The notes under the pieces: model-generated | Database searches by the model: none | What the model saw: only the letters and a program-made list of their open reading frames with translations | Told to the model about the DNA's origin: nothing | Shown: positions 5,064 to 33,659 of the stretch, in pieces | How the letters are laid out: each line of letters opens with the position of its first letter | How positions within the stretch are numbered: the first letter of the stretch is position 1 | Assembly: GCA_977020255.1 (NCBI GenBank) | Contig: CDROCS010000636.1 | Coordinates: forward strand, 1 to 64,000 | Source of the DNA: Obrimoposthia wandeli | Taxonomy: Eukaryota | Reading direction: 5' to 3' | DNA length: 64,000 nucleotides | Program-made: the position numbers and the translations under genes

Positions 5064-7170
5064 TGTTAGATTTAGAAATTGAAATTGATAAAAAATTAAA
5101 TAATTTATACTAAAATAAAATCATGAAAACAAGGTTAATAATATTTAAAATTAAGTTAAAATATTTAGAGGATAAAATCAGGGGTAAATATTAATAGGAC
5201 CACGAGGTGGTAGCAATCACCGTTATATATAAGGTTAAGTTAATTAAGTAAAAGTGCAAAAAAGAAATCAGCAAACAAACTATAGAAAAGGAAAGTCAAA
5301 GATTAATCAAATCAAAAGAAAATCCAGAAAGAAGAAATTATTGTAAGTTGCGATTATTGATTAAAATCCGTTTTACTTTCTTTTTAGCTGTCAATCTTAG
5401 TGACAGGAAACGTCACAACCAAAATTTCAATTTCTATATTTTCAGCTGTCAGGATAGAGTGGCTTTGAGTGACAGGAAACGTCACAGCCAAAATTTCCAA
5501 TTTCTATATTTTCAGCTGTCCAGGATAAGTGGCTACAGCGCTCTAGCCTAAGTGGGTAAAATTACTATAGAACAATTTTCTTTAAGTCAACTAATTTAGA
5601 AAAAAAACAAATTGAAGTCGAATGAAATCGAATATAATTGAAAGGTTGAAACAAATAATTGAAGTCAATATAATTGAAAGGTAGGAAACAAATAATTGAA
5701 ATCAATATAATTGAAAGGTTGAAACAAATAGTGAAGTCGAATATAATTGAATTGGAAAAGACAAATAATTGAATACAAATAATTGAAGAGTCGTTGAATA
5801 CAAATAATTGAAGTCGAATCTAATTGAATAGTTGGAAACAAATAATTGAAGTCAGAATATAAGTCGAAGAAGGTTGGAGACAAGTGAAATCGAATATAAT
5901 TGAAGTAAAATCTGGATTGAATAAAGACAAATTGAAGTCGAGACAAATTGACGGACAGACCAACATATCTCCGACAAATCATTAACCGAGAGTCCAAGCA
6001 GAGCCAACCCTCTGACAGCCCACGGATCCAGATCTCGGGAAAAACTCTAGGATTGGATAGGTAAGACGACTCATATAAATTCATTCATTGTCAGAAGTTG
6101 ACAATTCGATTACTCTCATTCATTGTCCGAAAGTGACAATTCGTTACTCTAATTCATTGTCCAGGTGACAATTCGTTACTCTCATTCATTGTCAGAAGGT
6201 GACAATTCGAAATACTCTCATTCGTTGTCGAAAGGCGTGTTCGTTACTCTCATTCATTGTCAGAAGGTGACAATTCGATCTCATTCATTGTCAAAGGTGA
6301 CAGTCATTCGATCTCAATTTATTGTCAAAGGTGACAATTCAAATTACTCTCATTCAAATTGTCCAGAAGATGACAATTCGATACTCTCATTCATTGTCGA
6401 AGGTGACAATTGATACTCTCATTCATTGTCCGAAGGTGGCAATTCGTTACTCCATACAAATCATTGTCCACAGTTGACAATTCGGCCTCCATACAAATCA
6501 TTGTCCACAGTTGACAATTAGGCTTTTATACGAATCATTGTCCACAGTTGACAATTCTCGTCTGAATTCATAACACTAGAATGAAAGTTACCCAAGTTAA
6601 AAAGCTTTACCCAACACGATCTAAGTTTAAGTTGAAAGAAAGTTTTAAAAGAGTTGTGTTATAAATTAACCAACCTAGAAAGAAGTTTTGCATTCGCACC
6701 TTTATTGTCATAAGAATAAAGGTTTAACCTCAAAGTTCAAGCCGATAGCAAAGTTAAATTGTTGAGAATCTGTAACGTGAGCTTATTCTCGAGTCAGAGG
6801 AATAACTCTAAAATCTCGATCACCCCGAACACGTAAAATCGAGTACGTGGTTCATCCCCACTTGTTGTAGAGACTTACAGAAGTCTTAGGAATTTTACTA
6901 TACTTTTTAGAAAATACGTACATAAACGTATTGTTGTGTTCAGTTTAGTGTGCTACCAATAAACGATTTCCTACATTAGAAAACGCGTTGTTTTTGAACC
7001 TTCAGATTAAAGACGTCAAACCAAACACCTTCAGATAAACAAGAGAGATAGGCAACCATAACACTAAGTAGGCCACGACCAACTTTAAGACCTGCTTCTA
7101 TTCGAACTCACGTTGGGGCCCTCCGCACATAAGAGGATCTGTACAAGTTCATCGTATAGAAACCCCAACA
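5064..7170 (+). repeat. 5' LTR (2107 bp)
   Basis: Starts TGTTAGATTTAG, ends AAACCCCAACA; collinear with 26747-29034; internal tandem arrays at ~5590-5940 and ~6085-6560. Confidence 0.92.
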
Positions 7171-7178
7171 TATTAAAG

Positions 7179-7196
7179 TGGTGCCCCGAGTGAGGA
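7179..7196 (+). promoter_or_regulatory. Primer-binding site, most similar to the complement of the elongator tRNA-Met 3' end
   Basis: TGGTGCCCCGAGTGAGGA, 8 nt after the LTR end. Its reverse complement ...CCTCACTCGGGGCACCA resembles metazoan elongator tRNA-Met 3' ends as I recall them (...CCTCACACGGGGCACCA). Confidence 0.75.
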
Positions 7197-8657: not shown

Positions 8658-10375
8658 TTGACTGAATTATTTGGTGACATAAACCCAGAAGAATTTGAAA
8701 TTGCCAATCCAGTAGTGATTGAAGAAGTTCAAGCATTGAATAATATTGAAGAAATAGTTGAAGATATAGTTGAAAATATGGCTCACCCAGGAGCTCAAGC
8801 AGATATTAATGCAGGAAATAATGTAGGTGACATGAATGCCGAACAGTTGGCACAAGCCTAAATGCGACGTTGAGAACCCAATTTTTCAGGATCATTGCAG
8901 ATTACAAAGTTTAAAGGAGATGAGGAAAGTATTTGTGACTTCCTCGCAGAATATTCGAGTTGTGCAGATGTTCAAGGATGGAACGATAAAGAAAAATGTG
9001 TCCGAGTACAGGCACACTTAACCGGATTAGCACTTGAAGTGTATAAACATTTGACAGAAGCAGAACGTTTAGACTGGCCAACGTTGGAAAATGCTTTTAT
9101 TGGAAAATTGGTATTAGGAGACTTAGCCAAAGTAAATAAGCGACTCATGAGAGAACGGAAACAGAAACATGATGAAGGCGTGAATGAATACGCGTATGTT
9201 TTGAGAACCTTGGCCGCAAGAGCGTACCCAAGAAGAATAATGAGAAATCAGGACGGTAATCCTGTAGCTCAAGAAGCACAAGTAGCGGAAAATGACCGGA
9301 ACCAAAATGAAATGGCAGAGGTTTTGTTAGATATATTTAGAGGAGGATTGAAAAAGGATATTAAAGTGTTATTAGCAGTATCGGATACAAATGATTTTGA
9401 TAACGCCGTGCGAAAGGCGAGAGAGATTGAGAAAAATATAAAAATAACGCAGTATTGGCAATTTACGCAATGACTGCAGGTGACGACGATAAGACAAAGG
9501 TCTTCGTGAATAAAACAGAACTGAGTAATTTTCAGAATCGAAATTATGGACAAAATAAGTTTGAAAAAGTAGATGAATCCAGTAACGGAAATAGAGATAA
9601 TTTCCGAAGTAGGAATCGAGATGATTCCAGAGGTAGAAATAATAGTGAGTCTTGGAACAGGAATCGAGATGATTCAAGAGGTAGAAATGGTAATGATTCG
9701 TGGAATAGAAATAGAGATGATTCCAGGAATAGATTTAATAGAGATAATTCAGGAAATCGCCAACCTTGGAGAGGAGACGATAGGAATTATAACGCAAACA
9801 GAGGAGAGCGAAGTGACTCTCGATTTGGAAATAATACAGGAAGTAGTGACGGAAGATTCAATAATCGAGGAAGCGGTTTTGAATCGAATTTCCGAAGAAA
9901 TGATTTTAGAGGACGATATGATAATAGACAGAATAGTTGTCGAGTACAGTTCGCAGATGAACAAAATAAGATAGATATTCGAGGGAGAATAATGTGTTAC
10001 ACGTGTAAACAAATGGGTCACTATTCGAGAGACTGTACGAGGAGTAAAGAGTTCGGAACTAACAGATTTGGAAATAATAATTTCGGTAATAATAATTTTG
10101 GAAACAATTATAGAGGATATAATTCACCTCCGCCATGGAATAGAGGTGGTGGATATACTCCACAGCCATGGAGACCGAATAATCAGTATACAGATAGACA
10201 ACAGTCACCAGGTAGATACAATAACTATGCAGACAGACAGCAAGGAGCTGAGAGATACAATAATTACGTAGGACAGCAAGGAGCTGAGAGATATAATAAT
10301 TCCGGTAGATATAATAATAATAATGTTGACAAGACAAATAGTCGTGAGTTCGCCGAAACCGAAAGGAAATTTTAG
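8658..10375 (+). CDS. gag: Gag (capsid domain, R/N/G-rich linker, CCHC zinc knuckle), frameshifted
   Basis: FKGDEESICDFLAEYSSCADVQGW..K...HLTGLALEVY retrotransposon capsid pattern; CYTCKQMGHYSRDC (CX2CX4HX4C) at 9994-10036. The true start may lie upstream (~8440). Confidence 0.85.
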
Positions 10376-11819: not shown

Positions 11820-12200
11820 TAAAGATATACTTACGGGAATTCTCAGGCAAGTGAAGCCGAAGTTGTTCAAAATGTACAGAGATGAAACAACCGATATAAC
11901 AGACAATTTGACTAAAGCAGTTAGATCACAGATGTCTGCAGTAAAGAGAATGACCGCGAATCATGTATACCATGCATCGATAGATAGATTTTACGACGGT
12001 GAAGTTTTAGCGAGATTATGTGGAAATCAGACTACAAATAAAAAGTTAATTACAGCAATCACATATCTATGTTTCCAATTGACGGAACGAACGAGCCAAC
12101 CTCACGAAGTCAAACAAGGAATAAATGAAGCGATGTATTTGATCGAGAATGTATTACAGAGACGAATTGACGAAAACGGAGGTTGGGCAAAATTAAGTGA
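11820..12200 (+). CDS. Putative Bcl-2-like domain in the polyprotein
   Basis: YLIENVLQRRIDENGGW resembles BH2 (TYLNDHLEPWIQENGGW in Bcl-xL); KLITAITY sits at BH1-like spacing upstream; the NWGR motif is degenerate; a hydrophobic segment follows. Confidence 0.55.
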
Positions 12201-12312
12201 CTACGCTAAAACCATTGTGGAAATGAACGAAGACGATGACGAACAATGTCATGAGAATCGTCAAAGAGAAAATAAACAATACCGTCCGAAAGAGAGAAAC
12301 AATCAACCAAAT

Positions 12313-14180
12313 ATGTCCACAACAATGATGATGATGTTAGTAATGTTCATGGGAATGCAACAGGAATCAGGACTGATAGCATACGACTGTAGCATACCAA
12401 AGATGGGACAAAAGTATTCACTGCTTGACAGCGAAGACTGTCCAGAATCACAACCGTCAAAATTAGAAGTTAAAGGTGTTGAAAACTACTTTGTGTATCA
12501 GGATGTTGATAAAGTACAAGTAGAAGTGAAAGAATGTTCAATCCATTCAAGTTATCACGAATTCTATTGTGGCCATAGAAGTTTTATGTCGGAAATCACA
12601 CCTACCACACCGTACAAAGCACATAAGGTTTTGCCGAGAGATTGCGAAGACGCATTTCGAACGGGAACAATAGAAGTAGACAAGAATTACAAACCTGATG
12701 TAAAAATTGGAGTAAGACGATACGAAACAGTCACGAGAGTCGGACAACGATGGGCTGATGGATCTTGTGACGGAGGAACAAAAAACGTGCGTGGAACCAA
12801 AGTAACAGAGTTAGTAATGGACGTAACTTACAAAATCGAATTAAAAACATGGACCGCCAATTTTGATAAAAAGACACAACTAATGATGAAGTATCCAGAA
12901 TGTAAAATGACAGATACATCTTGTTTTACAGGCGAATCCACAATTGTGTATCACGTGAATCCGAAACAATGCTCTTTAGTATTTTTGAAAGAGATTAGCT
13001 TTAACAAAATAAAAGGATTCCTGTATAATAAAGATGGAGAAGGATTCCTGTATAATAAAGTTGGAAAAGGATTGCTAAATGAAACAAGACCAATTCCAAT
13101 GACAAAGACACCTACACTGTTAATGGCAACATCAATAGAAGAAGGATTGATATTTATTAAAAAGAGAAACAAAGCGCGATGCGGAATGACTGTTAGTACT
13201 ACAAACTATCCAGCAATAGTTTTGTCCAAAGAAGCAATAGCATTGGCAGAAACCAAGCTAAAACCAAAAAATATGCAGCTACACACGTATTTTAATAATA
13301 AAATTGATTTCTATTATCATAAAGGATTGATGCAAATGGAACAGTTATATCGGATGATGATCGAAAGAGATTGCCAGCTAAACAAAGAGATCGTAAGAAC
13401 AAAGTTAGCATTAGCTATTACGAATCCAGACATGGTAGCACCATTATTACCCTTGGATGAAGGAGTATTTGCTAAAACCATGGGAGAAGTATTGTATACT
13501 TACAAGTGTAATAAAGTAGAGGTACAGTTGAGAAAAACAGATCGATGTACGAGTGAATTGGCAGTAACGTATAATTTAAAAGATCTTTTGTTGAACCAAT
13601 CACGAGAATGATACTTCCAAAAGACACTCCAACTAAAGAAATCAGCTGCTCTAATATAATGGCACCTGAATATCAGATGACGAATGATCTATGGATAACG
13701 TTACCTGATCGAAAGCCAACGCAAAACCCCAGCGATGATAAAAATGACGAATCTTAAAGGTAAAATGAAATTCGAAGCGGTGGAAAATATGGAGAACGCA
13801 GGATTGTACAATGAAAAAGACTTAAAAGCGGCATGGAACGAAATAATGTTTCCAGTAAAAAGAGCCAGAGTACTTACGGAGATGGTACATCGAGCATTAC
13901 CGCCAGGAGCTAGATATGCGAATTTTGATATGTTGTTATCGCCAAGTCATTTCAAGGAAGCAGCACATCAGACACTTAGAAAGTTGTGGGGGAAATTCCT
14001 TGTTTTAGGACAATTATTTTCGGGTATCATAGGTATTTATGTTATAATTAAATTTGTGCAGGTAATTATAGCCCAGGTGTTGTCTACGTATAGTTTATAC
14101 AGGATAACCGGAATCACCTGGCAACTTATAATTGGATGTTTTCCATTTTTAGCAAAATATCTAATGCACCATCATCACGA
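12313..14180 (+). CDS. env: Envelope glycoprotein of chuvirus (Jingchuvirales G)-like type, two frameshifts (~13595, ~13730)
   Basis: Internal signal-like MMMMLVMFMG then LIAYDC; Cys-rich ectodomain (YCG, GSC, CG..TTNYP, LY..MI..DCQL...KLALA..NPD, GEVLY.YKC..VEV..R.T..C..EL.V); C-terminal TM pair FLVLGQLFSGIIGIYVIIK...G.TW..I. Confidence 0.8.
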
Positions 14181-14529
14181 GAACGAGTTGCAAGCCCTCA
14201 AGAAGGAACAACACCAAACGAGAACCATGATGCGAGAACCAAAAAACTATCGAGACGACAACGACGACGATAATGATAGCCCAGGAGTATATGCAAAGAT
14301 ACCAGGAAAACCAAAGATTCCGTTACCAGACAAGGAAGAAGTGGCGTTAAACCTATATCCAATGAAGGAACTAAAGGAAGAGAAGGAAAAGTTCAAGAGA
14401 GGCATCTTAATGATAAGATGGCCTAAAGTGAGCTACAGTGAGATTCCACAAGCAGAGGGAAAAGACAAAAAAGATAATTCCAGAAGAATTCTGAAGTCTA
14501 GGATATCAAATGAGAATCCAAATGCTCCA

Positions 14530-14830
14530 CCCCAAGTAGCAGTAACATTGAACGGAAGAGAATATCTTGCCGAAGTTGATACTGGATCCGCAGTATCAGT
14601 ACTGAGTAAAGAAATCTTGTCATCAAAAGAATTAAGAGAAGTATGTCCTAGAAAATAGACATTTGTTAACGTAAATGGTACAGATGTAGTGTCGGAAGGA
14701 ACACTGAAATGTTCATTGAATATCGATGGAAGAGCATTGCAGTTAAATGCTAGAATATTCACAGATTGCGGTAGTCCAGTCATGATTGGGATGGACGTAA
14801 TAAGAATGTTTGAAGGAATAATTATACTAC
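14530..14830 (+). CDS. Retropepsin-like aspartic protease, copy 1 (in-frame TAG at 14656)
   Basis: LAEVDTGSAVSVL (DTG at 14578), VNG flap-like segment and IGMD; same frame on both sides of the stop. Confidence 0.8.
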
Positions 14831-15059
14831 CAAACAACAAGAGTTATAAGAATGACAGTTCAGTGAGAGAGATAAAAATGTTGAGAGGACCTATAGTCGA
14901 AAAGGAAAAATACACTACGTTCCGTATGGGAAATTTGTACCAAGACAAAAAACAGGAAGCGCTAGTAAAGTCGATACTTCACTACAAAAACGTAAACCTC
15001 GGACCACAAGAGATGACGAGGAGAAAAATAACATATGTGAATCTGTCAGAAAAGGATCC

Positions 15060-16050
15060 CATGAGATTCGAGAAAAAGAGACGAAATATATTAGAACTGT
15101 ACTATTCAAAAGAAATGGCACGTAAAATGGCAAGATCAGGTTTAGAAATGTTAAACGCGACAAGCAGTTATGGTCATGAGATAGTAGTACGATGCGTATG
15201 GTGTAGAGTAAAGTTTAGAGAGTGGGAAAAGAATGAAAACCCAATGAGACGTCATAAAAGAGATGCACCAAATTGTCCATTTCTTTTGAAACTGAAAACG
15301 TCAAACGTACCAGAAATCCAAAAGGGAAAAGCACCCGATTTCGATTACAGCGACGAGATTCCAAAAGGAAAATCAGCTCTAATAACAGGTAGAGTAATAA
15401 CGAATAGTCGAATTGAAGACATATTCGAAGTTATGCGAGAAGTGAACGAATGTGACGAACAGTATCGAGAAATAACTTTCGAAGATCCAAGACTTAAAAA
15501 ATTGGCAAAAAGGGACTTTTGCTATAAAAAAGGATGGTAAAGACGTAATTAAATGCCACAAGTGTAAAAAAGAACGAATTATCGACAGATATACTCTTGA
15601 GCTACCTAAGAAAATTTTACATCATGAATTTTGCGAATTTTGTACTTTTAAAAACAAAATAAAGCAAAAAGAACAGAAAACCGAATGTATAATCGAATAC
15701 CAAATCACACGGAAAGAGATTTTGGCTCAACAAGACACACCGGTAGTGTCATTCGTGAGAAGGTTATATCCAAAAGAAGCAGAAAGAATCAGAGATTTGG
15801 TAGAATTAAAAATAAAAACTACGCGAAATGGATACGGGACAATTTTTGAATTACTAAAAGATAAAGATGACAGTACAATTGAAACAAAAGAGAAAGAGTA
15901 CATAAATGAACTAGAATACGTACTAGAAGATCCGGAATGCGCAGTTTGCATGGTCAACAAAATAGAAGTTGCCTTTCTACCATGCGGACATGTAAGAACA
16001 TGTCGGAGATGTGCGAATGAAATGGTATCATGTCCGATTTGTCGAAGAAT
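15060..16050 (+). CDS. IAP-like module: BIR1, diverged BIR2 and C3HC4 RING
   Basis: BIR1 CVWC-X16-H-X6-C (15193-15276). BIR2 LAKRDFCY..KDVIKCHKC-X18-H-X6-C (15502-15643), split by a frameshift in an A-run at ~15530 and then in frame with pol. RING CAVC...FLPCGH..TC..CA....CPICR (15938-16042). Confidence 0.85.
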
Positions 16051-16159
16051 AATAGATCGACAAGTGAGAAACATTAGATTTCACTATCCAAACAAAGGAA
16101 GTGGACCGACAGAGTGTAATAATTCGATAAATACAATATACCATATGGGAAATATAAAT

Positions 16160-19100
16160 GGAGCACAGCGACCAGCAGCTATCATTAGAGTAAATAATTT
16201 AAGAGTAAAAGCCTTAATTGATACAGGTGCTGTAGCTTCGATAGTAAGTGAAGACTGTTTGACAGAGGAACAGAAACGAACAATGGCAGAACCAGATGAA
16301 TTCTTGGTATCGGTCAATGGAGACCCTGTAAAAGTGACGGGAATATTACCATGTACATTTATAATTGGACGTAATACGATCACTATACCAGTTAGAATCA
16401 TGAAAGAATGTCCTGAACCTACAATTTTAGGAATGGATGTACTATCACAACTTAAAGGGATAAGTATTGATTTACAAGATCCAAGATTGAAGGATAGCAC
16501 ATCAAACAGACAAATAAACCAAATTGATGTAATTATAGAGAATCCTATAAAAATCGGTAAAAGATCACAATTTCTCATTCAAGGTCACACATTATCGGAA
16601 GATAAAGGACCAGTTGTGTTCGAACCATCACGAGATTTCATAGAGAAATACGAATTACCAGTTGTGAGTACAGTATGCCTGATCGAAAACCACAAAATAC
16701 CAGTTAGACTGATGAATACAACCAACAATGACATTCTATTATACAGAGGAATGAGGTTGGGAAAGATAGCACAAATGGAGAATCCCACCGTGTGTGCTAT
16801 GAAACTCGATAAAGATACGAATGATTACGAAGAGATAGTAATCCAATCAGAAAGACTGACAACTAGAGAAAAGAAACAATTACTTGATCTAATACATAAA
16901 TTTCCGAAAGTAATTGCAAAAAATCCATATGACATAGGAGAAACACCTGTCATAAAACATACAATACCACTGACAGAAGATAAAGTAGTCAGAAGAAGAC
17001 CATATCGAGTACCATTACAGTTACAAGATGAAGTAAAAAGTCAGATCGAAGATATGTCTAAAACAGGAGTAATTAGACCGAGTTTTTCGCCATTCTCAGC
17101 ACCTGTGGTGTTGGTAAAAAAGAAGGATGGGAAAATGAGATTCTGTATAGATTTCAGAGAACTGAACAAGATCACAAGAAAAGATGTGTATCCATTACCT
17201 AGAATCGAAGAGATGCTCGATAAATTGGGTAATTCAGATTATTTTACAACATTAGATTTGCAAAGTGGATACTGGCAAATCGAGATAGAGGAAGAGGATA
17301 AACACAAAACAGCCTTTTCCTGCGGAGATGGATTATACGAATGCGAAAAGATGCCATTCGGACTGACAGGAGCTCCAGCAACATTTCAGCGTTGCATGAA
17401 TTTTGTACTCGCATCGTGTGCAAACACGATGGTTTATATCGATGACATAATAATATTTTCGAAAACGTTCGAAGAACATTTAAAAAATCTTGAAGTTGTA
17501 TTTAAAAGACTGGAAAACGCTAAATTAAAAGTTAAACCTACAAAATGCGAATGGGCTAAAGAGCGAGTAACATTTTTAGGACATATAGTATCGAAAGAAG
17601 GCATTCGACCTGATCCGGCAAAGATCGAGAAAGTAAAAGCGCATTTAGCGCCAAAGACTGTTAAGGAGATACAGAGTTTTTTAGGTCTTGCGAATTATTA
17701 TAGACGATTTGTTGAACATTTTTCAGATATAGCAACACCATTGAGAAAGTTGACGAGAAAAGATGAGAAGTTCATATGGGGAGAAGAAGCACAACAAGCG
17801 TTCGAACATTTAAAAGAAAGACTGATAAAAGCACCAATATTAGCGTTTCTAGATATAAACCGACAATTCATACTCATGACAGATGCAAGTAACTATGCTG
17901 TAGGAGCAGTATTGGGACAAGAGGATGACGAAGGAAGAGAACACGTCATCGCGTATGCGAGTAGAGGATTAAACAGAGCTGAAAGAGGATACTCTGTTAT
18001 CGAAAAGGAATGTCTAGCCATAGTGTATTCATGTAGACAGTACAGACACTATTTGCTAGGACAAAAAGTATTCCTGTATACAGATCACAAACCACTACAG
18101 TTCTTATATAAACATAGAGATGAGATGAGTAGATTAAACAGATGGTTTCTAAAATTGGCCGAATTCGATCTAGAAATCCGTTATAGAACCGGAAAGTCGA
18201 ACGGCGGCGCAGATTGTTTGTCGAGATTGACAAATGTAGACGAGAAAGGAAACATAATTCCAGAAGAAGATGAAACCAATGACCAAAAAGGAGAAGCAAA
18301 TCTACTGACGATTTTGCTAAAGACGGGTAAAATAGACAAAGAGATCATCAAAGAACAGAAAGAAGATGAAGAACTGAGTCTAATCAAAGAATTGTTGGTG
18401 AAAGGAGACCTAAACGATGAAATGACGAAGAAATACTCGATAAAAGAAGGAATCTTGTATATTGTCAATAATGTCGGAAAGATAGTAGTAGTAATTCCGA
18501 AGTCATTGAAAACAGCAGTGATGATCCAGTATCACGATGGAACACTAGGAGGACATCTGTCAGGGCGAAAGACAATAGCCAGAATCAAAGAGAAGTACCA
18601 TTGGGATGGTATGGAAGACGACATAAAACAATGGTGTAAACAATGTAAAGTATGTTTAACCAGAAAAGACACCGGAACTCGTACTAAAGTTCCACTGAAA
18701 CCAATGCCAGTTCCTTTGGCACCAATGGAATTCACAGCGATGGATATATTGGGACCATTGAGAGAATCAAGTAAAGGAAACAAGTACGTCATAGTATTTA
18801 CGGACTTACATGACGAGATGGGTAGAAGCATATCCCATGCAGAACCAGAAAGCTGAAACAATAGCGCAGATCTTAGTGGAAGAGATAATATTTCGATACG
18901 GAGTGCCTAGAAAGTTGTTAACGGATCAAGGTAAGAACTTCACTGGAGAAGTAATAAAAGCAGTATCGAAGATATTCGGAATCATGAAGTTACAAACTTC
19001 ACCATATCACCCACAAACAGATGGTCTAGTAGAAAGGTTTAATAAAACTTTATGTATGATGGTACAATCCTATTGCTCAGACAAGCAAGAGGATTGGGAT

Positions 19101-20712: not shown

Positions 20713-20912
20713 AAGATAGCGTAATACCGTATCCGATTCACAAATACGAAGGGGAAATCAATCCAATTATTCTAACCCCTTCATTAATTTCAGTTCAGAC
20801 AGACATACCAGAATACCCTTCGAGCGAGTCTAGTCAAGACAGCGAACCGGAAAGTAACGATACAGAATAAACAGAATCCGAAGATAACATAATAGAGCGA
20901 TTCGGAAGAACC

Positions 20913-21659
20913 ATGGAGGTTGAATTCGCTAAAGAGAACAGAAAAAGACAAAACATAGAATTCGTGAAACAGAATATACAAGAAAGACGAATTAAATCTG
21001 CAGAAGAAACCGAGTCGGAAGAAGACTCAACAAAGGAACAGACATCAGAGACAAAGATGAATATCTCTCCAGCAATACGAATGCTGAGAGGAAAGAAACT
21101 GGCGAAACTATCCAACATCGACGAACAGATAGAGAAGAGATTAGAAAGACTAAAACTCGAAGAGTCAGAATTATTGCCACCAATGAGCGAGATCATTCCA
21201 GATAAGTTATACCTCGGAAATGTGGAAGATGCAACAGATGAAAAGAAACTGTTGGAACAAGGGATAACATACGTGATCAACGTTACAATGAATCACAAAT
21301 CACAATATCAGACAATCAGAGCTATGACATTAAGAGTAAAAGACTCAATGGACGCTAATCTTCTCGAATGGTTCGTAGAAACAAACGAAATACTTCACAG
21401 AGAACTCCGAAACCAAGGAAAAGTGTTGGTACATTGTCAGAAAGGAATTTCTCGATCAGCAACTCTAGTATTAGCATATCTAATAAAGACTAGACGAATG
21501 CAGGTACTAGAAGCGCTGAAATACCTACAGGAGAGAAGAAGTATTGCAAACCCAAATCTTAATTTTTTGGGACAGTTGGCAAATTACCAACTTCTGTTGC
21601 AAGAACAAAGACGGATAGACGACATTCCTGAGGATCCAAAGGAAAAGAATTTCCTCTAA
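20913..21659 (+). CDS. Dual-specificity protein phosphatase, catalytic motif intact
   Basis: MSEIIPDKLYLG, GITYVINVT, V.D, VLVHCQKGISRSATLVLAYL (HC at 21432), NPNLNFLGQL. Confidence 0.92.
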   Translation: MEVEFAKENRKRQNIEFVKQNIQERRIKSAEETESEEDSTKEQTSETKMNISPAIRMLRGKKLAKLSNIDEQIEKRLERLKLEESELLPPMSEIIPDKLYLGNVEDATDEKKLLEQGITYVINVTMNHKSQYQTIRAMTLRVKDSMDANLLEWFVETNEILHRELRNQGKVLVHCQKGISRSATLVLAYLIKTRRMQVLEALKYLQERRSIANPNLNFLGQLANYQLLLQEQRRIDDIPEDPKEKNFL

Positions 21660-21668
21660 GCATTATCG

Positions 21669-22931
21669 TTGACCGGGTTATTCTTAGCCGGAGTCGACAA
21701 AATTACACAGATAATGCCAAAAGTATTTTTATGTCATCCAGGAGATATAGATACTGCTGGATTAAAGTTCCACAGTATCAACCGAGTAATCAACATTGTT
21801 GAAGTCGGAAACGAAATAATCAGTCTGTGTCAAAATACTGAAGATGACACCACTCGATACATACATGCTTCCAATCGAGAGATAAACGATGCACAACAAC
21901 ATCTGACGAAATTGACTCAAACCATCCAAGCCGAAGTCACAGAAGGAAACGGCGTTCTGATATATCAGAAAAAAGGTACAATGTTAGCGCCTACCATAGG
22001 TGTATCCTTGTTGGTAGAGTACCATGGTCACACGCCAGAAGAAGCGATGGTCTACATCAAACAGAATAGACCAGATACGGAATTCAAACCGTTACTCGTT
22101 CGAGAAATAGAGAAGTACGCCGAAAAGAGGAAGCAACAACGAGAAACAAATGAAGCTACAACAACAGTGCCCAGCTTTCAATACCAAAGATTGCTAGCGA
22201 TAGGCTTGTTAAGTTGTCTAATGCCGATAACGGGAGCACAAGAGATAGGCTCCAACCACGGAAATAGTTCCTGGTTCAACGAAATCCACAACTACACCAT
22301 ACAGTACCATACGCCGGCACTGATGATGCTATTAGTGTTGTTAGGATTAATTGATGTGTGGATCATCCGAAAATGTCTCCGATCTATGAGAACCGACAGT
22401 AAAAGATTTCAGTTTGTAAAGATGAAAAGACCAAATGGACCGACGAACAAAGTGCTTGTGTATCTAGACGAAAGGATCGAGGATAACATAGTAAATGAAG
22501 CGATATTTTATCCACAAAACAGAATACTGAATCAATTCCGAATAGATTACGAAGCTGACCGACAGCGCACACTTGACCGAATATCAACAACATTCGCCGG
22601 ATGCAAGCGAAGAAAACGAATTGTAAAGGAAATAAAAAAAGATGCTGATACAAAAGGACCGACGTATATATTCGACGGCGATGTCATCAAAACACGTGAG
22701 TATGGAAGTAAGAGAGTGATAATTGAAACGATGGAAGGACATAAAACATGCTTGTCCGCTAAAAATGGATTCGGAAAGTTGATGATACAAGGTAAACAGG
22801 TACAGTTGATTATCGGGAAAAATGGAATCGAGGAGATGTCAAAACAACGACAGACAACAAAACGATCCAATCAGAAACAGATATCTCTCAAACGAATGAT
22901 AATTAAAACCCTTTGCAAAAGGTCAGTCTAG
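21669..22931 (+). CDS. ORF with a catalytically dead DSP-like domain, a small signal+TM segment and an unknown basic domain
   Basis: ITQIMPKVFL..INRVINIV..GVLIYQKKGTMLAPTI..L..Y.G.T.EEAM.YIKQNRP parallels the upstream DSP but lacks the HCxxGxxR Cys and Arg. Hydrophobic stretches LLAIGLLSCLMPITGA and LMMLLVLLGLIDVWII follow. Confidence 0.6.
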   Translation: MTGLFLAGVDKITQIMPKVFLCHPGDIDTAGLKFHSINRVINIVEVGNEIISLCQNTEDDTTRYIHASNREINDAQQHLTKLTQTIQAEVTEGNGVLIYQKKGTMLAPTIGVSLLVEYHGHTPEEAMVYIKQNRPDTEFKPLLVREIEKYAEKRKQQRETNEATTTVPSFQYQRLLAIGLLSCLMPITGAQEIGSNHGNSSWFNEIHNYTIQYHTPALMMLLVLLGLIDVWIIRKCLRSMRTDSKRFQFVKMKRPNGPTNKVLVYLDERIEDNIVNEAIFYPQNRILNQFRIDYEADRQRTLDRISTTFAGCKRRKRIVKEIKKDADTKGPTYIFDGDVIKTREYGSKRVIIETMEGHKTCLSAKNGFGKLMIQGKQVQLIIGKNGIEEMSKQRQTTKRSNQKQISLKRMIIKTLCKRSV

Positions 22932-24854: not shown

Positions 24855-24977
24855 TAAGTCAGAGGAGGTTGTAGATAAATTAGTGTGTGAAATATGTAGA
24901 AATATCTAGAAGCGATTGTACAAATAGTAGAAATATATAAAACTCATGTAGAAATTAATCATCATCATGTATTTAGA

Positions 24978-25277
24978 ATGTCCGAAGAATGCCCAATATG
25001 TTTGGAAGATCTCACCGAACGAAGAACAAGACCCGAAACCTGCAACCATTTACACCACGAGGAATGTTTATCAACATGGATCAGAACTTATGGACAGTTC
25101 GGACATCCAACATACCCTTGTTGCCCTGTATGCAGAAGACAATTCGCAAGATTCATCATGTTAGAACCCAACCAAGAGGATGTATATGTACAGGTGGTAT
25201 TCTGTTGGAAGAATTTCGGAGAGTGTTGGTGTTACTACTGTTTGTCAGAACGACAAAATCCGACCACTTTTGTGTAA
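24978..25277 (+). CDS. RING-H2 zinc-finger protein 1
   Basis: CPIC...CNHLHHEEC..W...CPVCR plus a C-terminal CWK....CWCYYC cluster. Confidence 0.85.
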   Translation: MSEECPICLEDLTERRTRPETCNHLHHEECLSTWIRTYGQFGHPTYPCCPVCRRQFARFIMLEPNQEDVYVQVVFCWKNFGECWCYYCLSERQNPTTFV

Positions 25278-25337
25278 ACATCACACAATCACCAGTCCTC
25301 AATCGAGCCCAAATTCAACATCAACCCTCTCACAGTA

Positions 25338-25643
25338 ATGTCTGGAGAATGTTCCATCTGCTACGAGAGCATCGTGGACCTCTACACCAAGCCCAACAAC
25401 TGCGACCACCTTTTCCACATCGAATGCCTCGAGACGTGGATTCCCATCGCCAACAGCAACAATCCCCTCGACTTCCCAACCTGCCCGATGTGCAGAGCGA
25501 CCTTCTCAGTGCACTACGTGTACAACCAGGACAGCCTCCAAGCAGTGGTACCCATAGTACACTGCTGGAAAACTATCTGCGATTGCTGGTGCTCGTTCTG
25601 CGTGGAGGAGCGACGCACAGGCCAGCCCAACTCCCAGCAATAA
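25338..25643 (+). CDS. RING-H2 zinc-finger protein 2 (paralog of 1)
   Basis: CSIC...CDHLFHIEC..W...CPMCR plus the same CWK....CWCSFC cluster. Confidence 0.87.
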   Translation: MSGECSICYESIVDLYTKPNNCDHLFHIECLETWIPIANSNNPLDFPTCPMCRATFSVHYVYNQDSLQAVVPIVHCWKTICDCWCSFCVEERRTGQPNSQQ

Positions 25644-25984
25644 TCGAAGGTAACTTTCTGACTTGAACGTGACATCATGAACTACCCTGTGTATCGCATA
25701 CCGCGATAAATTAGCTACCATAATTGTAATCATAATTGTATAATCTTGTGAAACTGTAAAATGACCATTACCATTTTTATGTATGTTGTTTAACTGAAAT
25801 TGTAATTATTATACTGAAATTCTAAAAGACAATTTTTTATGCCTAGTGTGAATGTGTAAACATGCCTAAAATCGGAACAAAACTCGGTAGGATTAAAAAA
25901 CTAAGGGTTCGTTTTGAAACTAGAATTTTAAACTTTATAAATTAACGACGAAAACAGTCGAAAAGGAATCATTATTTTGTGCAG

Positions 25985-26482
25985 ATGAAGTGTTCAGTCT
26001 GCCTGGAGAAAATTTGGACGGCATCGGCATCCCCTGTCGGCTGCCGTCACAAATTCCACGAGTCGTGCCTCTATACTTGGGCCCGACTTCGACCCGAAGG
26101 CCACGTCACATGTCCGTTGTGCCGTGCTCCCTTCGCGGAGTGGACACTACAATGTCGCGGACGCCACAAGGGCACTCATTCGCTCACCAGCTGTATTGGT
26201 GGCGAACATTACCAATGCCCCAACTGCATCGCGCGCCGTCGCGACGCGAAACTCGCCCTCCGCGAAAAATGGCGATCAACCCGTGACTGCCGCTCATGGC
26301 AACGTGGTCGCCAAATATGGATCCAGAACCGCGGGGTCCACGGGCGGTACACGACCCTCTTCCACCCCAATCAGCACCTCAGCATGCCCCAGCAGATGGC
26401 CCTGTTCGAAGGCAGGACTCCATCATATCCAGACCTACCACTGGAGCAGGTCTTGCTGTTCTTAAAAGACAGAAACAATTGA
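25985..26482 (+). CDS. RING-H2 zinc-finger protein 3
   Basis: CSVC...CRHKFHESC..W...CPLCR plus downstream C....H.QCPNC; ATG at 25985. Confidence 0.85.
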   Translation: MKCSVCLEKIWTASASPVGCRHKFHESCLYTWARLRPEGHVTCPLCRAPFAEWTLQCRGRHKGTHSLTSCIGGEHYQCPNCIARRRDAKLALREKWRSTRDCRSWQRGRQIWIQNRGVHGRYTTLFHPNQHLSMPQQMALFEGRTPSYPDLPLEQVLLFLKDRNN

Positions 26483-26746: not shown

Positions 26747-29034
26747 TGTTAGATTTAGGAATTGAGAAATTATTAAAAAATTAAATAATTTATACTAAAA
26801 TAAAATCCTTGAAAGCAAGGTTGAAAATTAAATATTTAAAATTAAGTTAAAATATTAGAGAATAAAATCAGGGGTAAATATTAATAGGACCACGAAGGTC
26901 GTGTGTAATGCGTTATATATAAGGTTAAGTTAATTAAGTAAAAGTGCAAAAAAGAAATCAGCAAACAAACTAAGAAAAAGGAAAGTCAAAAAATTAATCA
27001 AATCAAAAAGAAATCCAGGAAAAGAAGAAATTATTGTAAGTTGCGATTATTGATTAAATCGTTTACTTTCTTTTTTCAGCTGCCAATATTGAGTGACAGG
27101 AAACGTCACAGCCAAAATTTCAATTTCTATATTTTCAGCTGTCTAGGATAAGTGGCTTTGAGTGACAGGAAACGTCACAGCCAAAATTTCAATTTCTATA
27201 TTTTCAGCTGTCCAGGATAAGTGGCTACAGCGCTCTAGCCTAAGTGGGTAAGAAATTACTATAAGAACAATTTTCTTTAATCAAATAATTGCAGAAAAAC
27301 AAATAATTGAAGTCGAATATAATTGAAAGGTTGGAAACAAATAATTGAAGTCGAATATAATTGAAAGGTTGGAAACAAATAATTGAAGTCGAATATAATT
27401 GAAAGGTTGGAAACAAATAATTGAAGTCGAATATAATTGAAAGGTTGGAAACAAATAATTGAAGTCGAATATAATTGAAAGGTTGGAAACAAATAATTGA
27501 AGTCGAATATAATTGAAAGGTTGGAAACAAATAATTGAAGTCGAATATAATTGAAAGGTTGGAAACAAATAATTGAAGTCGAATATAATTGAAAGGTTGG
27601 AGACAAATTGAAGTCGAGACAAATTGACAGACAGACCAACATATCTCCGACCAAATCATTAACCGAGAGTCCAAACAGAGCCAACCCTCTGACAGCCCAC
27701 GGATCCAGATCTCGGGAAAAAACTCTAGGATTGGATAGGTGAGACGACTCATATAAACACAAATCATTGTCCGCAGTTGACAATTAGGTTTTATACAAAT
27801 CATTGTCCGCAGTTGACAATTAGGTTTCACGCAAATCATTGTCCACAGTTGACAATTAGGTTTCACGCAAATCATTGTCCACAGTTGACAATTAGGTTTC
27901 ACGCAAATCATTGTCCGCAGTTGACAATTAGGTTTCCATATAAATTTTCATACAAATCATTGTCCGCAGTTGACAATTAGGTTTCACGCAAATCATTGTC
28001 CACAGTTGACAATTAGGTTTCCATATAAATTTTCATACAAATCATTGTCCGCAGTTGACAATTAGGTTTCACGCAAATCATTGTCCGCAGTTGACAATTA
28101 GGTTTCCATATAAATTTTCATACAAATCATTGTCCGCAGTTGACAATTAGGTTTCACGCAAATCATTGTCCGCAGTTGACAATTAGGTTTCACGCAAATC
28201 ATTGTCCACAGTTGACAATTAGGTTTCCATATAAATTTTCATACAAATCATTGTCCGCAGTTGACAATTAGGTTTCCCACAAATCATTGTCCACAGTTGA
28301 CAATTAGGTTCCATATAAATTTTCATACAAATCATTGTCCACAGTTGACAATTAGGTTCCATACAAATCATTGTCCACAGTTGACAATTAGGCTTTTATA
28401 CGAATCATTGTCCACAGTTGACAATTCTCGTCTGAATTCATAACAATAGAAAGTTACTCAAATTAAAGAAAGCTTTACCCAACACGATCTAAGTTTAAGT
28501 TGAAAGAAAGTTTTAAGAGAGTTGTGTTATAAATTAACCAACCTAGAAAGAAGATTTGCATTCGCACCTTTATTGTCATAAGAATAAAGGTTTAACCTCA
28601 AAAGTTCAAGCCGATAGCAAAGTTAAATTGTTGAGAAATCTGTAACGCGAGCTTATTCTCGAGTCAGAAGAATAACTCTAAAATCTCGATCACCCCGAAC
28701 GTAAAATCGATACGTGGTTCATCCCCACTTGTTGTAGAGACTTACAGAAGTCTTAGGAATTTTTACTATACTTTTTAGAAAATACGTACATAAACGTATT
28801 GTTGTGTTCAGTTTAGTGTGCTACCAATAAACGATTTCCTACATTAGAAAACGTTGTTTTAAACCTTCAGACCAACAGACGTCTAACCAAACACCTTCAG
28901 ATAAGAAATAGAGATAGGCAACCATAACACTAAGTAGGCCACGACCAACTTTAAGACCTGCTTCTATTCGAACTCACGTTGGGGCCCTCCGCACACAAGA
29001 GGATCTATACAAGTCTCGTATAGAAACCCCAACA
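26747..29034 (+). repeat. 3' LTR (2288 bp)
   Basis: TGTTAGATTTAG...AAACCCCAACA; holds 8 near-identical 38-bp units (27301-27604) and ~17 units of a 36/48-bp array (27760-28430). Confidence 0.93.
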
Positions 29035-29223
29035 AACGTATTGTTCTGGTCGTGTTCGAAATTTTAATTTGGATACATCATCTAAGCAAATTCCTTTATA
29101 ATTAATATTTGTTAACATTGTAAGTAAAATAATTAAATTATTGTATTTATATATATATTTTTTTTTATTCAGTATACAAATCAACCAATATCTCAAGTCC
29201 AATCAAATCAAACATATCATCAG

Positions 29224-32200
29224 ATGAGTATATGTAAAACTTATTCAAATTTTTGTCATTCGGATACACATTTTAATCCTCAAGAATGTCATGATATAAT
29301 GAAAAAATATTATGGTTATTCATACAAAAGGATAAATTATTTCATATGTCCACAATGTTTAAGCACTGAAAATGTTGATTACAACTTATTTTATAGTCGA
29401 CATGTTAGTCATTTAAAAGAATATGAAAATGATAGTAAGAAAAAATTATTTAAAGTACCGGCTTTAAGCAAAAGAACTGATATAATTAATGTACCATCAA
29501 ACATAGTAATTTCAGCTCCTACTCCGTCACGAAAACGTAAAATAAATGACAATATACATACTAAAACATCGTTAGAAAATAGTTATTCAATGATATCCAT
29601 GAAAGTAGATCATCTCAATCTTGTAAGTCTTAAGGTTCCAGTTTCATTATTAAACGAATTAGAAAGAATAGTGCAATTAATGGGAAAAGCAAAGATACAA
29701 TACATCATTAGAATGAGGTTTAAAAAGAATGATGGAGAAACTAAAGAATGGTATGCTTCGCATCGAGCAATGATTTTTTCACATGCTATAATTTCAGAAA
29801 TGGAAGATACAATGGAAAATAAAGTTGAAGAATATTCAGAAAAGGGTAGTGGTTGGAAATTGATGAATATACTTGAATATACATTTATTGCTACTAAATA
29901 TAGTCAAATTTGTGCATTGTCAGGTCATTCATATATTAAATCACCAAATTCTCTTACAAAATCTAAAGCAGTCGTCAATATTCAAAACTCTGATAATCTT
30001 TGCTTTATTTATGCAATATTGTCAATATTTAAATATAATGAAATAGAATTACATAGAAATAGACCAAGCCAATATGAAAGATTTTTAAATGATTTTGTAT
30101 ATAATTCCGAAGACATGCCTATGAAAATATCAAATATATCAAAATTTGAAATGCAAAATCCTGGTATAATAATAAATGTATTCATATTCAACGAGATAAG
30201 TGAAATAGAATCAAAAACTGATGTTATCAAGAATCCTTATATTGATATTGCATACAAATCAAAAATAAAGGAAGGAACTATAGTTAACTTATTGTTACTA
30301 GAATCCAAGGAACGATTTCATTATATAGGAATAACTTGTCTTAACCGGCTATTAAATATTCGAACTGGAACGACTAGAATTAGCAGAAAATGGTGTGAAA
30401 AGTGTTTACATGGTTTCAAAACCGATTTGTCATTAGAAAAGCATAAAGTTTTATGTGACTATAATCAAGAAAGCACTACAATGTATACTATGCCTAAGAA
30501 TAAGTACGTTAAATTCAACGATTGGTCAAAAACTATATCACCGAAATATGTCGTTTACGCTGATTTTGAATCTGTATTAGTACCAGATGAGAGTTATCAT
30601 CAAAAGCATATGCCTGTCGCATCTGGTATGTTATTTATGAGTACAGATGAAATTGAAACCCAGTATCAATATAATGTTGGTGATGACTGCATAGTTAAAT
30701 TTCTTCAGTCAATAGAGAACTTGGCTAAAGAAAAAGTTTTGCCATGGTATTTAGATGCTCTTAAAAACGTAATGATACCCTTAACAAATGCAGAGATTCA
30801 TACATTTAGCAATGCCGATGAATGTTATTTATGTCGCGAATCATCTGAAAAATATGTTAAAGATCATGATCACTTTACTGGCAAGTATCTAGGTCCTGCA
30901 TGCAATGAATGTAATTTATCAAGAAAACTTCGTCCAACTTTACCTATTGTGTTTCATAATCTCAGAGGTTATGATTTACATCATATTTTAAAACATGCAT
31001 TGAATAAATTTACTGACTGGGATATAAATATTATACCACAATCAACGGAAAAGTTTCAAGCCATGATTGTAAGATTAGGTCAAATAACTCTGAGATTTAT
31101 AGATTCTTTGCAATTTTTACAATCATCTTTGGAAAATTTAGCCGGTAAATTACCAACTATTCCATTAACAAGATCAGTTTTTCCATCTAAACTTATTGAT
31201 GGCAAAGGAATATTCCCATATGATTTTGCTACATCATTAAATGTCCTCCAGAATAAGTTAAGTTTACCAGTAAAATGGAATGATAAAATCACAGACACTG
31301 AATATCAAAAAGCACAAGATGTTTGGAAAATAACCAATTGTAGAAATATGTTGGATTATATGTTAGTTTACTTAAAGACTGACGTATATTTATTAGCTGA
31401 CGTATTTCAAACATTCAGAAGAAAAAGCTCTCAGTGAAGATGGTTTAGAACCACTTAACTTTTTTAGCATTCCTGGGTTGAGTTGGGCAAGTGCTCTAAA
31501 AATGTTAAAACATAAGGTTGAACTGATGCAGGATCCTGAAATGTACAACATGATTTCTTCGGGTATACGAGGAGGAATGACATTTGTCAATAAGCATCAT
31601 GTAGTCGCTGATGAAGAAACAAGTCTTTTATATATAGATGTTAATAATTTATATGGATGGGCTCTTGATCAACCTTTACCAAAAGGAGATTTTGAATGGA
31701 TTCTTGATGATATAAAATTAAACGAAATATTGCATGAAATGAAAAATGTGAACATGGAACATATTGAATATGGTTATTTTATGGAAGTAGACTTGGTAAT
31801 ACCAGAAAACCTTCATGACTTTTTAGATGATCTTCCTATAGCTCCAGAAAAGAAATGTCCACCTGGTAAAAAGTTGAAAAACTTTTAATGACGCATTCGC
31901 CAAAAAGTCATTATGTTATTCATTGGAGACTATTGCAGATGTATGTTAGTTTAGGAGCAGTGGTAACAATTATTCATCGAGCAGTAAAATTCTCTCAGGC
32001 TAAGATATTCGCAGAATATATAGAATATAATTCAGAAATGAGATCACAAGCAACGAATAAATGTGACAAAGATTTTTATAAACTTAAAAATGTTAGTTTG
32101 TATGGAAAGACCGTTGAAAATGTTAAGAAACGATTGAATCTTCACATCTGCACTAGTTCTACAAAATTAATTACATATACTAGCAAACCTATGTTTCAAC

Positions 32201-32862
32201 GAACAATTGAAATTCATGATAATTTAATAGCTGTTTTATTAAGAAAAGACTTTATTTGTCTCGATCGACCAAATTATATAGGTCAAGCTGTACTAGACCT
32301 TAGCAAATTACGAATGTATACTCTTCAGTATCATGATTTGCAAATATATCGTAATTTGTTCAATTGTTCAATTAATATAGTTGCCGGTGATACCGACTCA
32401 TTCTTTTTGGAATGTAAAAACGTTAATTTAAGAAAACAGTTGTTACCAAAAATGATTGCAGATGGATTATTAGATACGTCAAATTATAATGTGAATGATC
32501 CATTATATTCTAATAAATTTAATAGTAAAATAGGTTTATTTAAAGATGAATCGGAAGGACGAATGTATAAAGAATGGATTTTCTTACTTTGTAAATGTTA
32601 TTCACTTAAGTTTGAAGATGACTTTGAAAATAATAAAGCAAAAGGAGTAAATCTTAAGGGTTCAACGGTTGTACATCAAACATATTTAGACGTGTATGAA
32701 AACGGTATTGCATATACTATACCTCAAAAGAAGTTTGGAACAATAAATCATCAACTATACACGATCATAATACAAAAGACTGCTCTCAGCTCATCAGATG
32801 ACAAACGCTATTGGATCGAGAAAAATAGAAGCCGCGCTTATGGACATTATGAAATTACATAA
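29224..32862 (+). CDS. polB: Protein-primed family-B DNA polymerase (Polinton/Maverick/adintovirus type) with EndoVII-like insertion; two frameshifts (~31430, ~31885)
   Basis: Exo motifs YADFES, FHNLRGYD, YLKTD; IDS and KGIFPY; GIRGG; polymerase motifs YIDVNNLYG, KL.NVSLYGK, GDTDS, GLFKDE, KAKGV, DDKR; CYLC...DHDHFTGKYLGPACNECN at 30823-30915. Confidence 0.9.
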
Positions 32863-33526: not shown

Positions 33527-33659
33527 CCCCCTAAAGGGTGTCACACCATAAGGATGTCTTGCCACACCATAAGGGTATATGTTGCCTCACTAGAGGTGAG
33601 GCAACATATGCCCTTATGGTGTGGCAAGACATCCTTATGGTGTGACACCCTTTAGGGGG
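33527..33659. other. Near-perfect hairpin/palindrome (64-bp arms, 5-nt loop TAGAG, one G:T mismatch)
   Basis: 33527-33590 pairs with 33596-33659; the inverted symmetry continues to ~33686 against 33476-33505. Confidence 0.95.

Follow-up and report, generated by a model that had tools for sequence, protein, structure and literature searches.

The giant LTR retroelement found in the window, by which we mean the whole stretch of 64,000 nucleotides analysed here, encodes within its gag-env-pol polyprotein a module composed of a BIR domain (BIR1), a degenerate second BIR (BIR2), a UBA-like helical bundle and a RING, and this module is retained by purifying selection while the element replicates. 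We estimate a probability of roughly 0.55 for the explanation that joins most of the evidence, namely that a constrained module of a Burro-type, env-bearing gypsy polyprotein is cut free and acts as a ubiquitin ligase that damps caspase-dependent death, and that it belongs to a lineage shared with Polintons. The core of this idea, an anti-apoptotic IAP in a giant planarian retroelement, is already published.

The element covers 23,971 bp of the forward strand (5064-29034), on which all its features described here are encoded. It is bounded by TG...CA-type LTRs of 2.1 kb (5' LTR, 5064-7170, with tandem repeats inside) and 2.3 kb (3' LTR, 26747-29034) that are 93.7% identical over 2,044 aligned nt and 96.9% identical over the last 590 nt, and no target-site duplication was seen flanking it. 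A putative primer-binding site (7179-7195) begins with TGG 8 nt beyond the LTR. Pfam profile searches gave the domain order gag/CCHC, fusion glycoprotein, protease, BIR, RING, protease, RT, RNase H, integrase, two phosphatases and three RINGs. The gag region (8874-10375), fragmented in the window copy, gave a retrotrans_gag-like match of 18.3 bits, which is below the cut-off, and has one CCHC knuckle (zf-CCHC, 27.7 bits). Directly 5' of env lies a weak BCL2-like region (11890-12201), for which the Bcl-2 profile scored 14.7 bits in the window and 20.7 bits (E 6e-4) in an 84%-identical older copy, compared to a cut-off of 31.4; neither a related Atlas family nor a related sequence match in the PDB was found for it. 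This region would be a second module of cell-death type in the polyprotein that contains the IAP module. The env gene (12370-14256), broken by frameshifts in the window copy, encodes a Monjiviricetes-type fusion glycoprotein (179.5 and 97.7 bits). Aspartic protease 1 (14536-14860; VDTG at 14575), which in the window copy is interrupted by a premature stop at 14656-14658, and aspartic protease 2 (16184-16450; IDTG at 16217) lie on either side of the module, and two protease stretches were found in a natural copy, too. RT, RNase H and integrase follow at 17114-19013, the integrase being frameshifted near 18810-18856, and further downstream there are two dual-specificity-phosphatase domains (21207-22109; HCx5R kept in the first) and three more small RING ORFs (24987-26125) in the 3' region. 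The stretch with these RING ORFs (24900-26482) has a raised GC content and is located between the long ORF and the 3' LTR. Directly 3' of the 3' LTR, a broken region for a protein-primed DNA polymerase B (29137-32862) is 38-60% identical to Polinton polymerases elsewhere in the genome, and a 64-nt inverted repeat with a 5-nt spacer, adjoined by short tandem repeats, was noted at 33527-33659.

The family is large, with 4,865 first-look candidates in the genome, the best 40 of which were scored and were all 97-100% identical. One natural 9-kb stretch reads as a single frame of 2,999 aa comprising CCHC, env (317 bits), both proteases, BIR, RING and RT, and the longest open frame listed for the family has 5,026 aa. 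Burro/GYPSM1 elements possess a giant single ORF of 4,873-5,140 aa, in which env lies in frame after BCL2 and ahead of the protease, and their BIR and BCL2-like motifs were first noted in 2007 (PMC6431247). The window element shares with Burro1/GYPSM1 of Schmidtea mediterranea the character of a giant triclad LTR element, a very long gag-to-pol ORF of about 5,000 aa, a BIR plus RING region, and the order gag, BCL2-like part (weak and below the cut-off in our case), mononegavirus-type env in frame before the protease, and then pol. It differs in length (24 kb compared to more than 30 kb for Burro1), in that one CCHC knuckle was found instead of the two or three of Burro, in that two proteases bracket the module, and in the phosphatase domains and extra RING ORFs. 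The MATH/TRAF, SUMO-like, ankyrin and dUTPase-like motifs published for Burro elements, which vary between elements and were in part recognised by HHpred, had no Pfam match in the window element.

The start of the module had been placed at 15060 by an earlier note on this DNA, and homology to P0009 and P0032, two unnamed homologues, moves it to near 14980; the resulting N-terminal extension (14980-15060) is common to the Polinton and the unnamed homologues. BIR1 (15061-15312) contains the canonical zinc motif that had been recognised before (Cx2Cx16Hx6C at 15193-15276) and matched Pfam BIR with 40.6 bits (E 4e-10). Its fold matches, at Z 11-13, were BIRC6 (Z 13.0, rmsd 2.2 Å, 86 residues), DIAP1 BIR1 (Z 11.7, rmsd 2.4 Å, 90 residues) and survivin, and with one BIR having both this motif and the BIR fold, the module belongs with the IAPs.

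BIR2 (15445-15645) has the ligand pattern Cx2Cx18Hx3C at 15554-15634. The downstream frame of the window alone gave no Pfam BIR match for it. In natural open-frame copies, BIR was the best Pfam match of BIR2 in all seven tested, with scores of 17.2-17.3 bits (E about 0.007) that stay below the cut-off of 22.9 and cover model positions 15-45 only. A profile of 446 cellular BIRs gave 15.1 bits for BIR2, compared to a maximum of 12.0 in the 956 scored of 1,000 shuffles, and neither a BIR match in the PDB by sequence nor a related Atlas family was obtained. Within an 8-row family alignment, the spacing Cx2Cx18Hx3C occurs in six rows, x19 in one, and the domain is deleted in one. BIR2 lacks the W...P..EH half, which is the groove-forming half. 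In its predicted model, for which the underlying alignment contained many cellular BIRs, two helices are followed by three strands and further helices, which is a BIR-like order, with a pLDDT of about 90 for the first 40 residues and of 60-80 thereafter; a single-sequence model had a pLDDT of 48, and the fold-match lists of the module were filled by BIR1 and RING. The second BIR that had been read across the frameshift therefore appears to be real, as judged from seven out of seven natural copies, but degenerate, scoring below the Pfam cut-off and having a non-canonical zinc spacing.

A UBA-like helical bundle (15722-15886) had been missed in the earlier description of the module as a complete BIR-BIR-RING protein. 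The match is weak (6.7 bits to the cIAP1 UBA, 3T6P; Z 3.5, rmsd 2.4 Å over 54 residues with the XIAP UBA, 2KNA) and the MGF loop is absent. The IAP-type C3HC4 RING and its tail lie at 15938-16084; the RING (15938-16042) matched zf-C3HC4_3 with 44.8 bits, and its best PDB matches are the RINGs of cIAP1, cIAP2 and XIAP; the tail is common to stand-alone Polinton IAPs. In the LTR element, the RING tail is followed by a variable linker and then by a conserved stretch ahead of protease 2. Other parts of the earlier reading are borne out as well: the RING runs without a stop into protease 2 and RT in a 1,126-aa frame (15476-18856) and on through RNase H and the integrase zinc finger, and in most natural copies sampled away from the junction the IAP-type module, flanked by the two aspartic proteases, is in frame.

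The window copy itself is broken at several places and is unable to make the protein, because protease 1 contains a stop and the frame shifts near 15530. This shift splits BIR2 in a homopolymer-rich stretch at about 15496-15532, and we considered whether it could be a programmed frameshift that yields a BIR1-only product besides the full one. Such a reading would agree with the first search, in which a query spanning the junction returned 30 loci, the window included, that were all out of frame. However, this query selected copies of equal length, and these 30 loci reach that length via differing homopolymer indels. When queries avoiding the junction were used, most copies were in frame: 21 of 29 other copies with an upstream-only query, 12 of these 29 with a single frame that runs through BIR1, BIR2 and RING without a stop, and, with a downstream-only query, 9 of the 13 copies that were covered (16 fetched, mostly older; none of the 13 with all three motifs unbroken). 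A set picked by protein score, and hence biased to intact copies, was in frame in 10 of 15 cases. A programmed shift, the probability of which we consider negligible, is rejected as an effect of ascertainment, and the shift is a lesion or an assembly error of the window copy. Contigs of three sequencing runs, when aligned with the window, differ from it by indels in several of the homopolymer runs at the junction, and the single contig of a second study that spans it shows two gaps at a depth under 5, which is weak evidence. Single-base indels recur at homopolymer runs across the copies L001-L077.

In order to quantify constraint, pairwise NG86 dN/dS values were calculated between 86 young and 40 older copies after removal of 13 duplicate loci, counting codon states present in at least three copies of a group. 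As the copies had been chosen by similarity, values within the young group are lowered, an effect that is smaller for the comparison of young with older copies. From the mutation spectrum observed, neutral values of 0.64-0.87 are expected. For the whole module, for which a value near 1 had been named beforehand as the refuting test, dN/dS was 0.28 (0.21-0.38). The UBA-like part had 0.29, BIR2 0.15 (0.07-0.32), the RING and both proteases 0.14 each, and the RT side 0.07. Among the domains, constraint is lowest in BIR1 (0.44), the interval of which (0.24-0.77) comes close to its baseline of 0.81. At least 83 of the 86 young copies retain all eight RING ligands. The module is under purifying selection during replication of the element. 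That it is a neutral passenger, kept since the frame to Pol must stay open, is very improbable: the linker preceding BIR1 evolves near neutrality (0.63; baseline 0.68), so that in-frame filler does occur, but BIR2, RING and the UBA-like part lie far under the baseline, which largely refutes this explanation, and the ligand spacing of BIR2 is common to 30%-identical homologues.

How the module might act depends on the groove of BIR1. E/Q319 and W323 are described as lining the IBM groove, whereas type I BIRs have Lys/Arg and Leu/Val at these positions and bind signalling adaptors, not caspases (PMC6360406). The equivalents in BIR1 are Arg in 84 and Asp in 85 of the 86 young copies, and among up to 40 older copies they are Leu in 29 and Lys in 34, so that BIR1 lacks the E/Q319 and W/H323 equivalents of a type II IBM groove and its groove residues are type-I-like. 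Among 417 cellular BIRs, 278 have an acid or Gln and 250 an aromatic residue at these sites, and the combination of a basic with a non-aromatic residue found in BIR1 occurs in 75. With these residues in the groove, direct caspase capture by BIR1 in the manner of DIAP1 is doubtful, and action via the RING ubiquitin ligase would be more likely.

These data bear on the proposal that the module is a DIAP1/Op-IAP3-like inhibitor, both BIRs of which capture the N-termini of caspases or their antagonists in IBM grooves. Several likenesses speak for it: DIAP1 BIR1 provides the best single-domain sequence matches of BIR1 (E 2e-8) and is among its best fold matches (Z 11.4-11.7), the viral fold-match list is filled by viral IAPs, BIR1 keeps Trp310 and the acid at the 314 equivalent, and the domain order, the BIR1 fold and the IAP-type RING are the same in DIAP1 and Op-IAP3. 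Yet DIAP1 BIR1 aligns Glu and Trp with the Arg and Asp of the module, residues that are also unlike those of most cellular BIRs, and BIR2 lacks its groove-forming half, scores under the Pfam cut-off and found no BIR in the PDB by sequence; in one Polinton family it is deleted. The module does not have two canonical BIR domains, considering the score (17.3 bits), the spacing and the missing groove half of BIR2. Moreover, DIAP1 and Op-IAP3 have a canonical BIR2 and no UBA-like domain, and their RING ends the primary product, which is otherwise in the module. We therefore regard a DIAP1-like inhibitor as unlikely, and the two-canonical-BIR layout of Op-IAP3 and DIAP1, which the earlier note had assigned, does not describe the module. 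Since a UBA-like domain is present, the domain plan appears closer to that of XIAP and cIAP, which have a UBA before the RING and provide the closest solved RINGs; the module differs from them in having one canonical BIR only, no MGF loop and no CARD. By analogy, we classify it as B-IAP-like of the Burro1 type and not as a member of the two-canonical-BIR group.

For dimer formation, IAP RINGs rely on a short C-terminal tail that has to be free. The RING of the module is predicted to become C-terminal only after cleavage, and the protease or proteases of the element may cut the module out at both of its flanks, so that it would end near the point at which the stand-alone Polinton homologues end. 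Similar short motifs follow protease 1 and the integrase and stand on either side of protease 2; a candidate cleavage motif had 9 matches, compared to 3.9 ± 2.0 in shuffles of which 6 out of 500 reached this number, although the motif was picked after seeing the sites, so that this is no real test. Once freed, the protein could be a RING ubiquitin ligase whose BIR surfaces bind targets, and general IAP biology together with the report on Burro1, which is a different element, suggests that it may damp caspase-dependent death in the cell that makes the particles, by ubiquitination or indirect binding rather than through a canonical IBM groove. The B-IAP of Burro1, consisting of BIR and RING, is stated to shield stem cells against apoptosis mediated by caspases (Lee et al., 2026, Dev Cell, as cited in PMC13465017). 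A ubiquitin ligase with a non-apoptotic job, which degrades restriction or immune-signalling factors or functions in particle assembly or release, either free or attached to the polyprotein, is a minority possibility that we take somewhat more seriously than capture by both BIRs. It would suit the type-I-like groove of BIR1, given that type I BIRs are described as binding signalling adaptors (PMC6360406), as well as the stronger constraint on the RING than on BIR1 and the presence of three extra RING ORFs and two phosphatase domains in the element. The BCL2-like region in the same polyprotein and the account of Burro1 in PMC13465017 (citing Lee et al., 2026), however, point to control of cell death, and a freed ligase damping caspase-dependent death remains our preferred reading.

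The relatives of the module connect it to Polintons. The best genomic BIR matches (best 150 scored of 12,110 candidates, 30 inspected) were mostly stand-alone ORFs of 341 and 301 aa, and all four IAP ORF regions examined had Polinton-type neighbours (a packaging ATPase, an integrase, a jelly-roll-like capsid or a protein-primed polymerase). Two high-copy Polinton families carry stand-alone IAPs that are 35-39% identical over the module and have the same tail, and in all 28 matches these ORFs end 4 codons past the shared tail. Adintoviruses are likewise described as including IAP and Bcl2 homologues (PMC8502044). In the two Polinton families the IAPs are separate genes with a stop just past the RING, whereas the window module is a segment of a polyprotein. 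Because BIR2 is more eroded in these Polintons than in the LTR element, the LTR module is not derived from these present-day Polinton families. In two Polinton regions (L108-L109 and L114-L115), a block of 4-5 kb with an IAP and a phosphatase is present twice, the two blocks being inverted relative to each other and more than 99.6% identical; they surround ATPase, integrase and capsid-like genes, and the IAP copies are about 10.5 kb apart. The first phosphatase of the window (20871-21656) is 30% identical (E 4e-23) to that beside a Polinton IAP (L115:4968-5702), which is without the HCx5R motif.

When 1.84 billion protein representatives were searched, P0009 and P0010 matched along the module (E < 1e-30) and three further representatives in one stretch only, none of the five having an informative name or context. 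Relatives of P0010 were found in none of 156 stretches of a metagenome scan, and a viral scan gave 12 distant IAP loci. A tree of BIR1 plus RING was calculated from 54 rows and 143 columns, with 45 cellular IAPs taken as the first by id and no triclad host IAP among the rows; P0014 and P0032 were dropped for a missing motif and P0112 was left out. The LTR and Polinton sequences together with P0009, P0010 and P0159 formed one clade (100/100) apart from the 45 cellular IAPs, although with a long stem (1.1) and only 143 columns long-branch attraction is possible. The inner order of the clade is weak (LTR with P0010, 51.5/93). The closest relatives are Polinton-borne IAPs and not baculoviral ones. 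A lineage common to LTR elements and Polintons of the host would imply transfer between element classes or capture from a common source. No BIR-RING gene of the host was noticed among the best genomic candidates, which is a weak negative as the list is swamped by element copies. Two odd candidates proved to be a deleted Polinton copy (L241) and a deleted LTR copy (L242), in which in-frame deletions have brought the RING closer to BIR1 or to the beginning of BIR2. Two single-BIR matches (L078:1381-1872 and L079:1450-1686) are unlike the element family and probably represent host genes; we take them to be survivin-like and BIRC6-like. We found no report of a Burro-Polinton IAP link or of Burro in marine triclads; Lee et al. 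(2026) with its supplements may cover anatomy or origin.

The host was placed by COX1. A TGA-containing COX1, one of eight near-equal matches in large contigs, is sensible under genetic code table 9 and not under table 5, and its best named relatives are triclads (69-71%). In a tree of 23 rows it fell among the triclads (92/93) as a separate branch that belongs neither to the land-planarian clade (97/92) nor to the Bdellocephala clade, and it lies outside Geoplanidae; no dugesiid was present in the tree or among the 120 listed matches. One of five sequencing runs with matching sequence is a marine metagenome (10 contigs aligned), and we infer that the host is a marine triclad. RNA data sets are absent from the runs listed, which does not bear on expression. 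Its triclad placement is likely and not proven because the assembly also contains other organisms. It includes many COX1 sequences of bacterial type, which lack TGA, and another animal COX1, which reads under table 5. The expansion of Burro1 is described for Geoplanidae and Dugesiidae (PMC13465017, citing Lee et al., 2026), and judging from COX1 the present host seems to be outside these families.

In summary, this case extends what has been described for Burro1 by three testable points: ancestry in common with Polintons, a host range that probably exceeds the two triclad families reported for it, and groove residues that speak for action as a ubiquitin ligase rather than for direct caspase capture. 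The first two of these deserve to be followed up. Tentatively, and with somewhat less than even odds, a RING-IAP lineage of the BIR-UBA-RING type may exist only in triclad mobile elements and may have moved between Polintons, where it is a stand-alone gene, and Burro elements, where it is a part of the polyprotein flanked by duplicated proteases, perhaps together with a phosphatase gene. If so, the 'mutualistic' B-IAP of Burro1 would be of virus-like-element origin and not a host gene, and flatworms, the annotated host genomes of which reportedly lack RING-IAPs, would obtain such activity from this lineage. Platyhelminths are stated to have lost RING-containing IAPs (PMC13159474, the main text of which does not mention Schmidtea or planarians), and if this loss extends to the present host, its only proteins of this kind would be those encoded by thousands of mobile-element copies.
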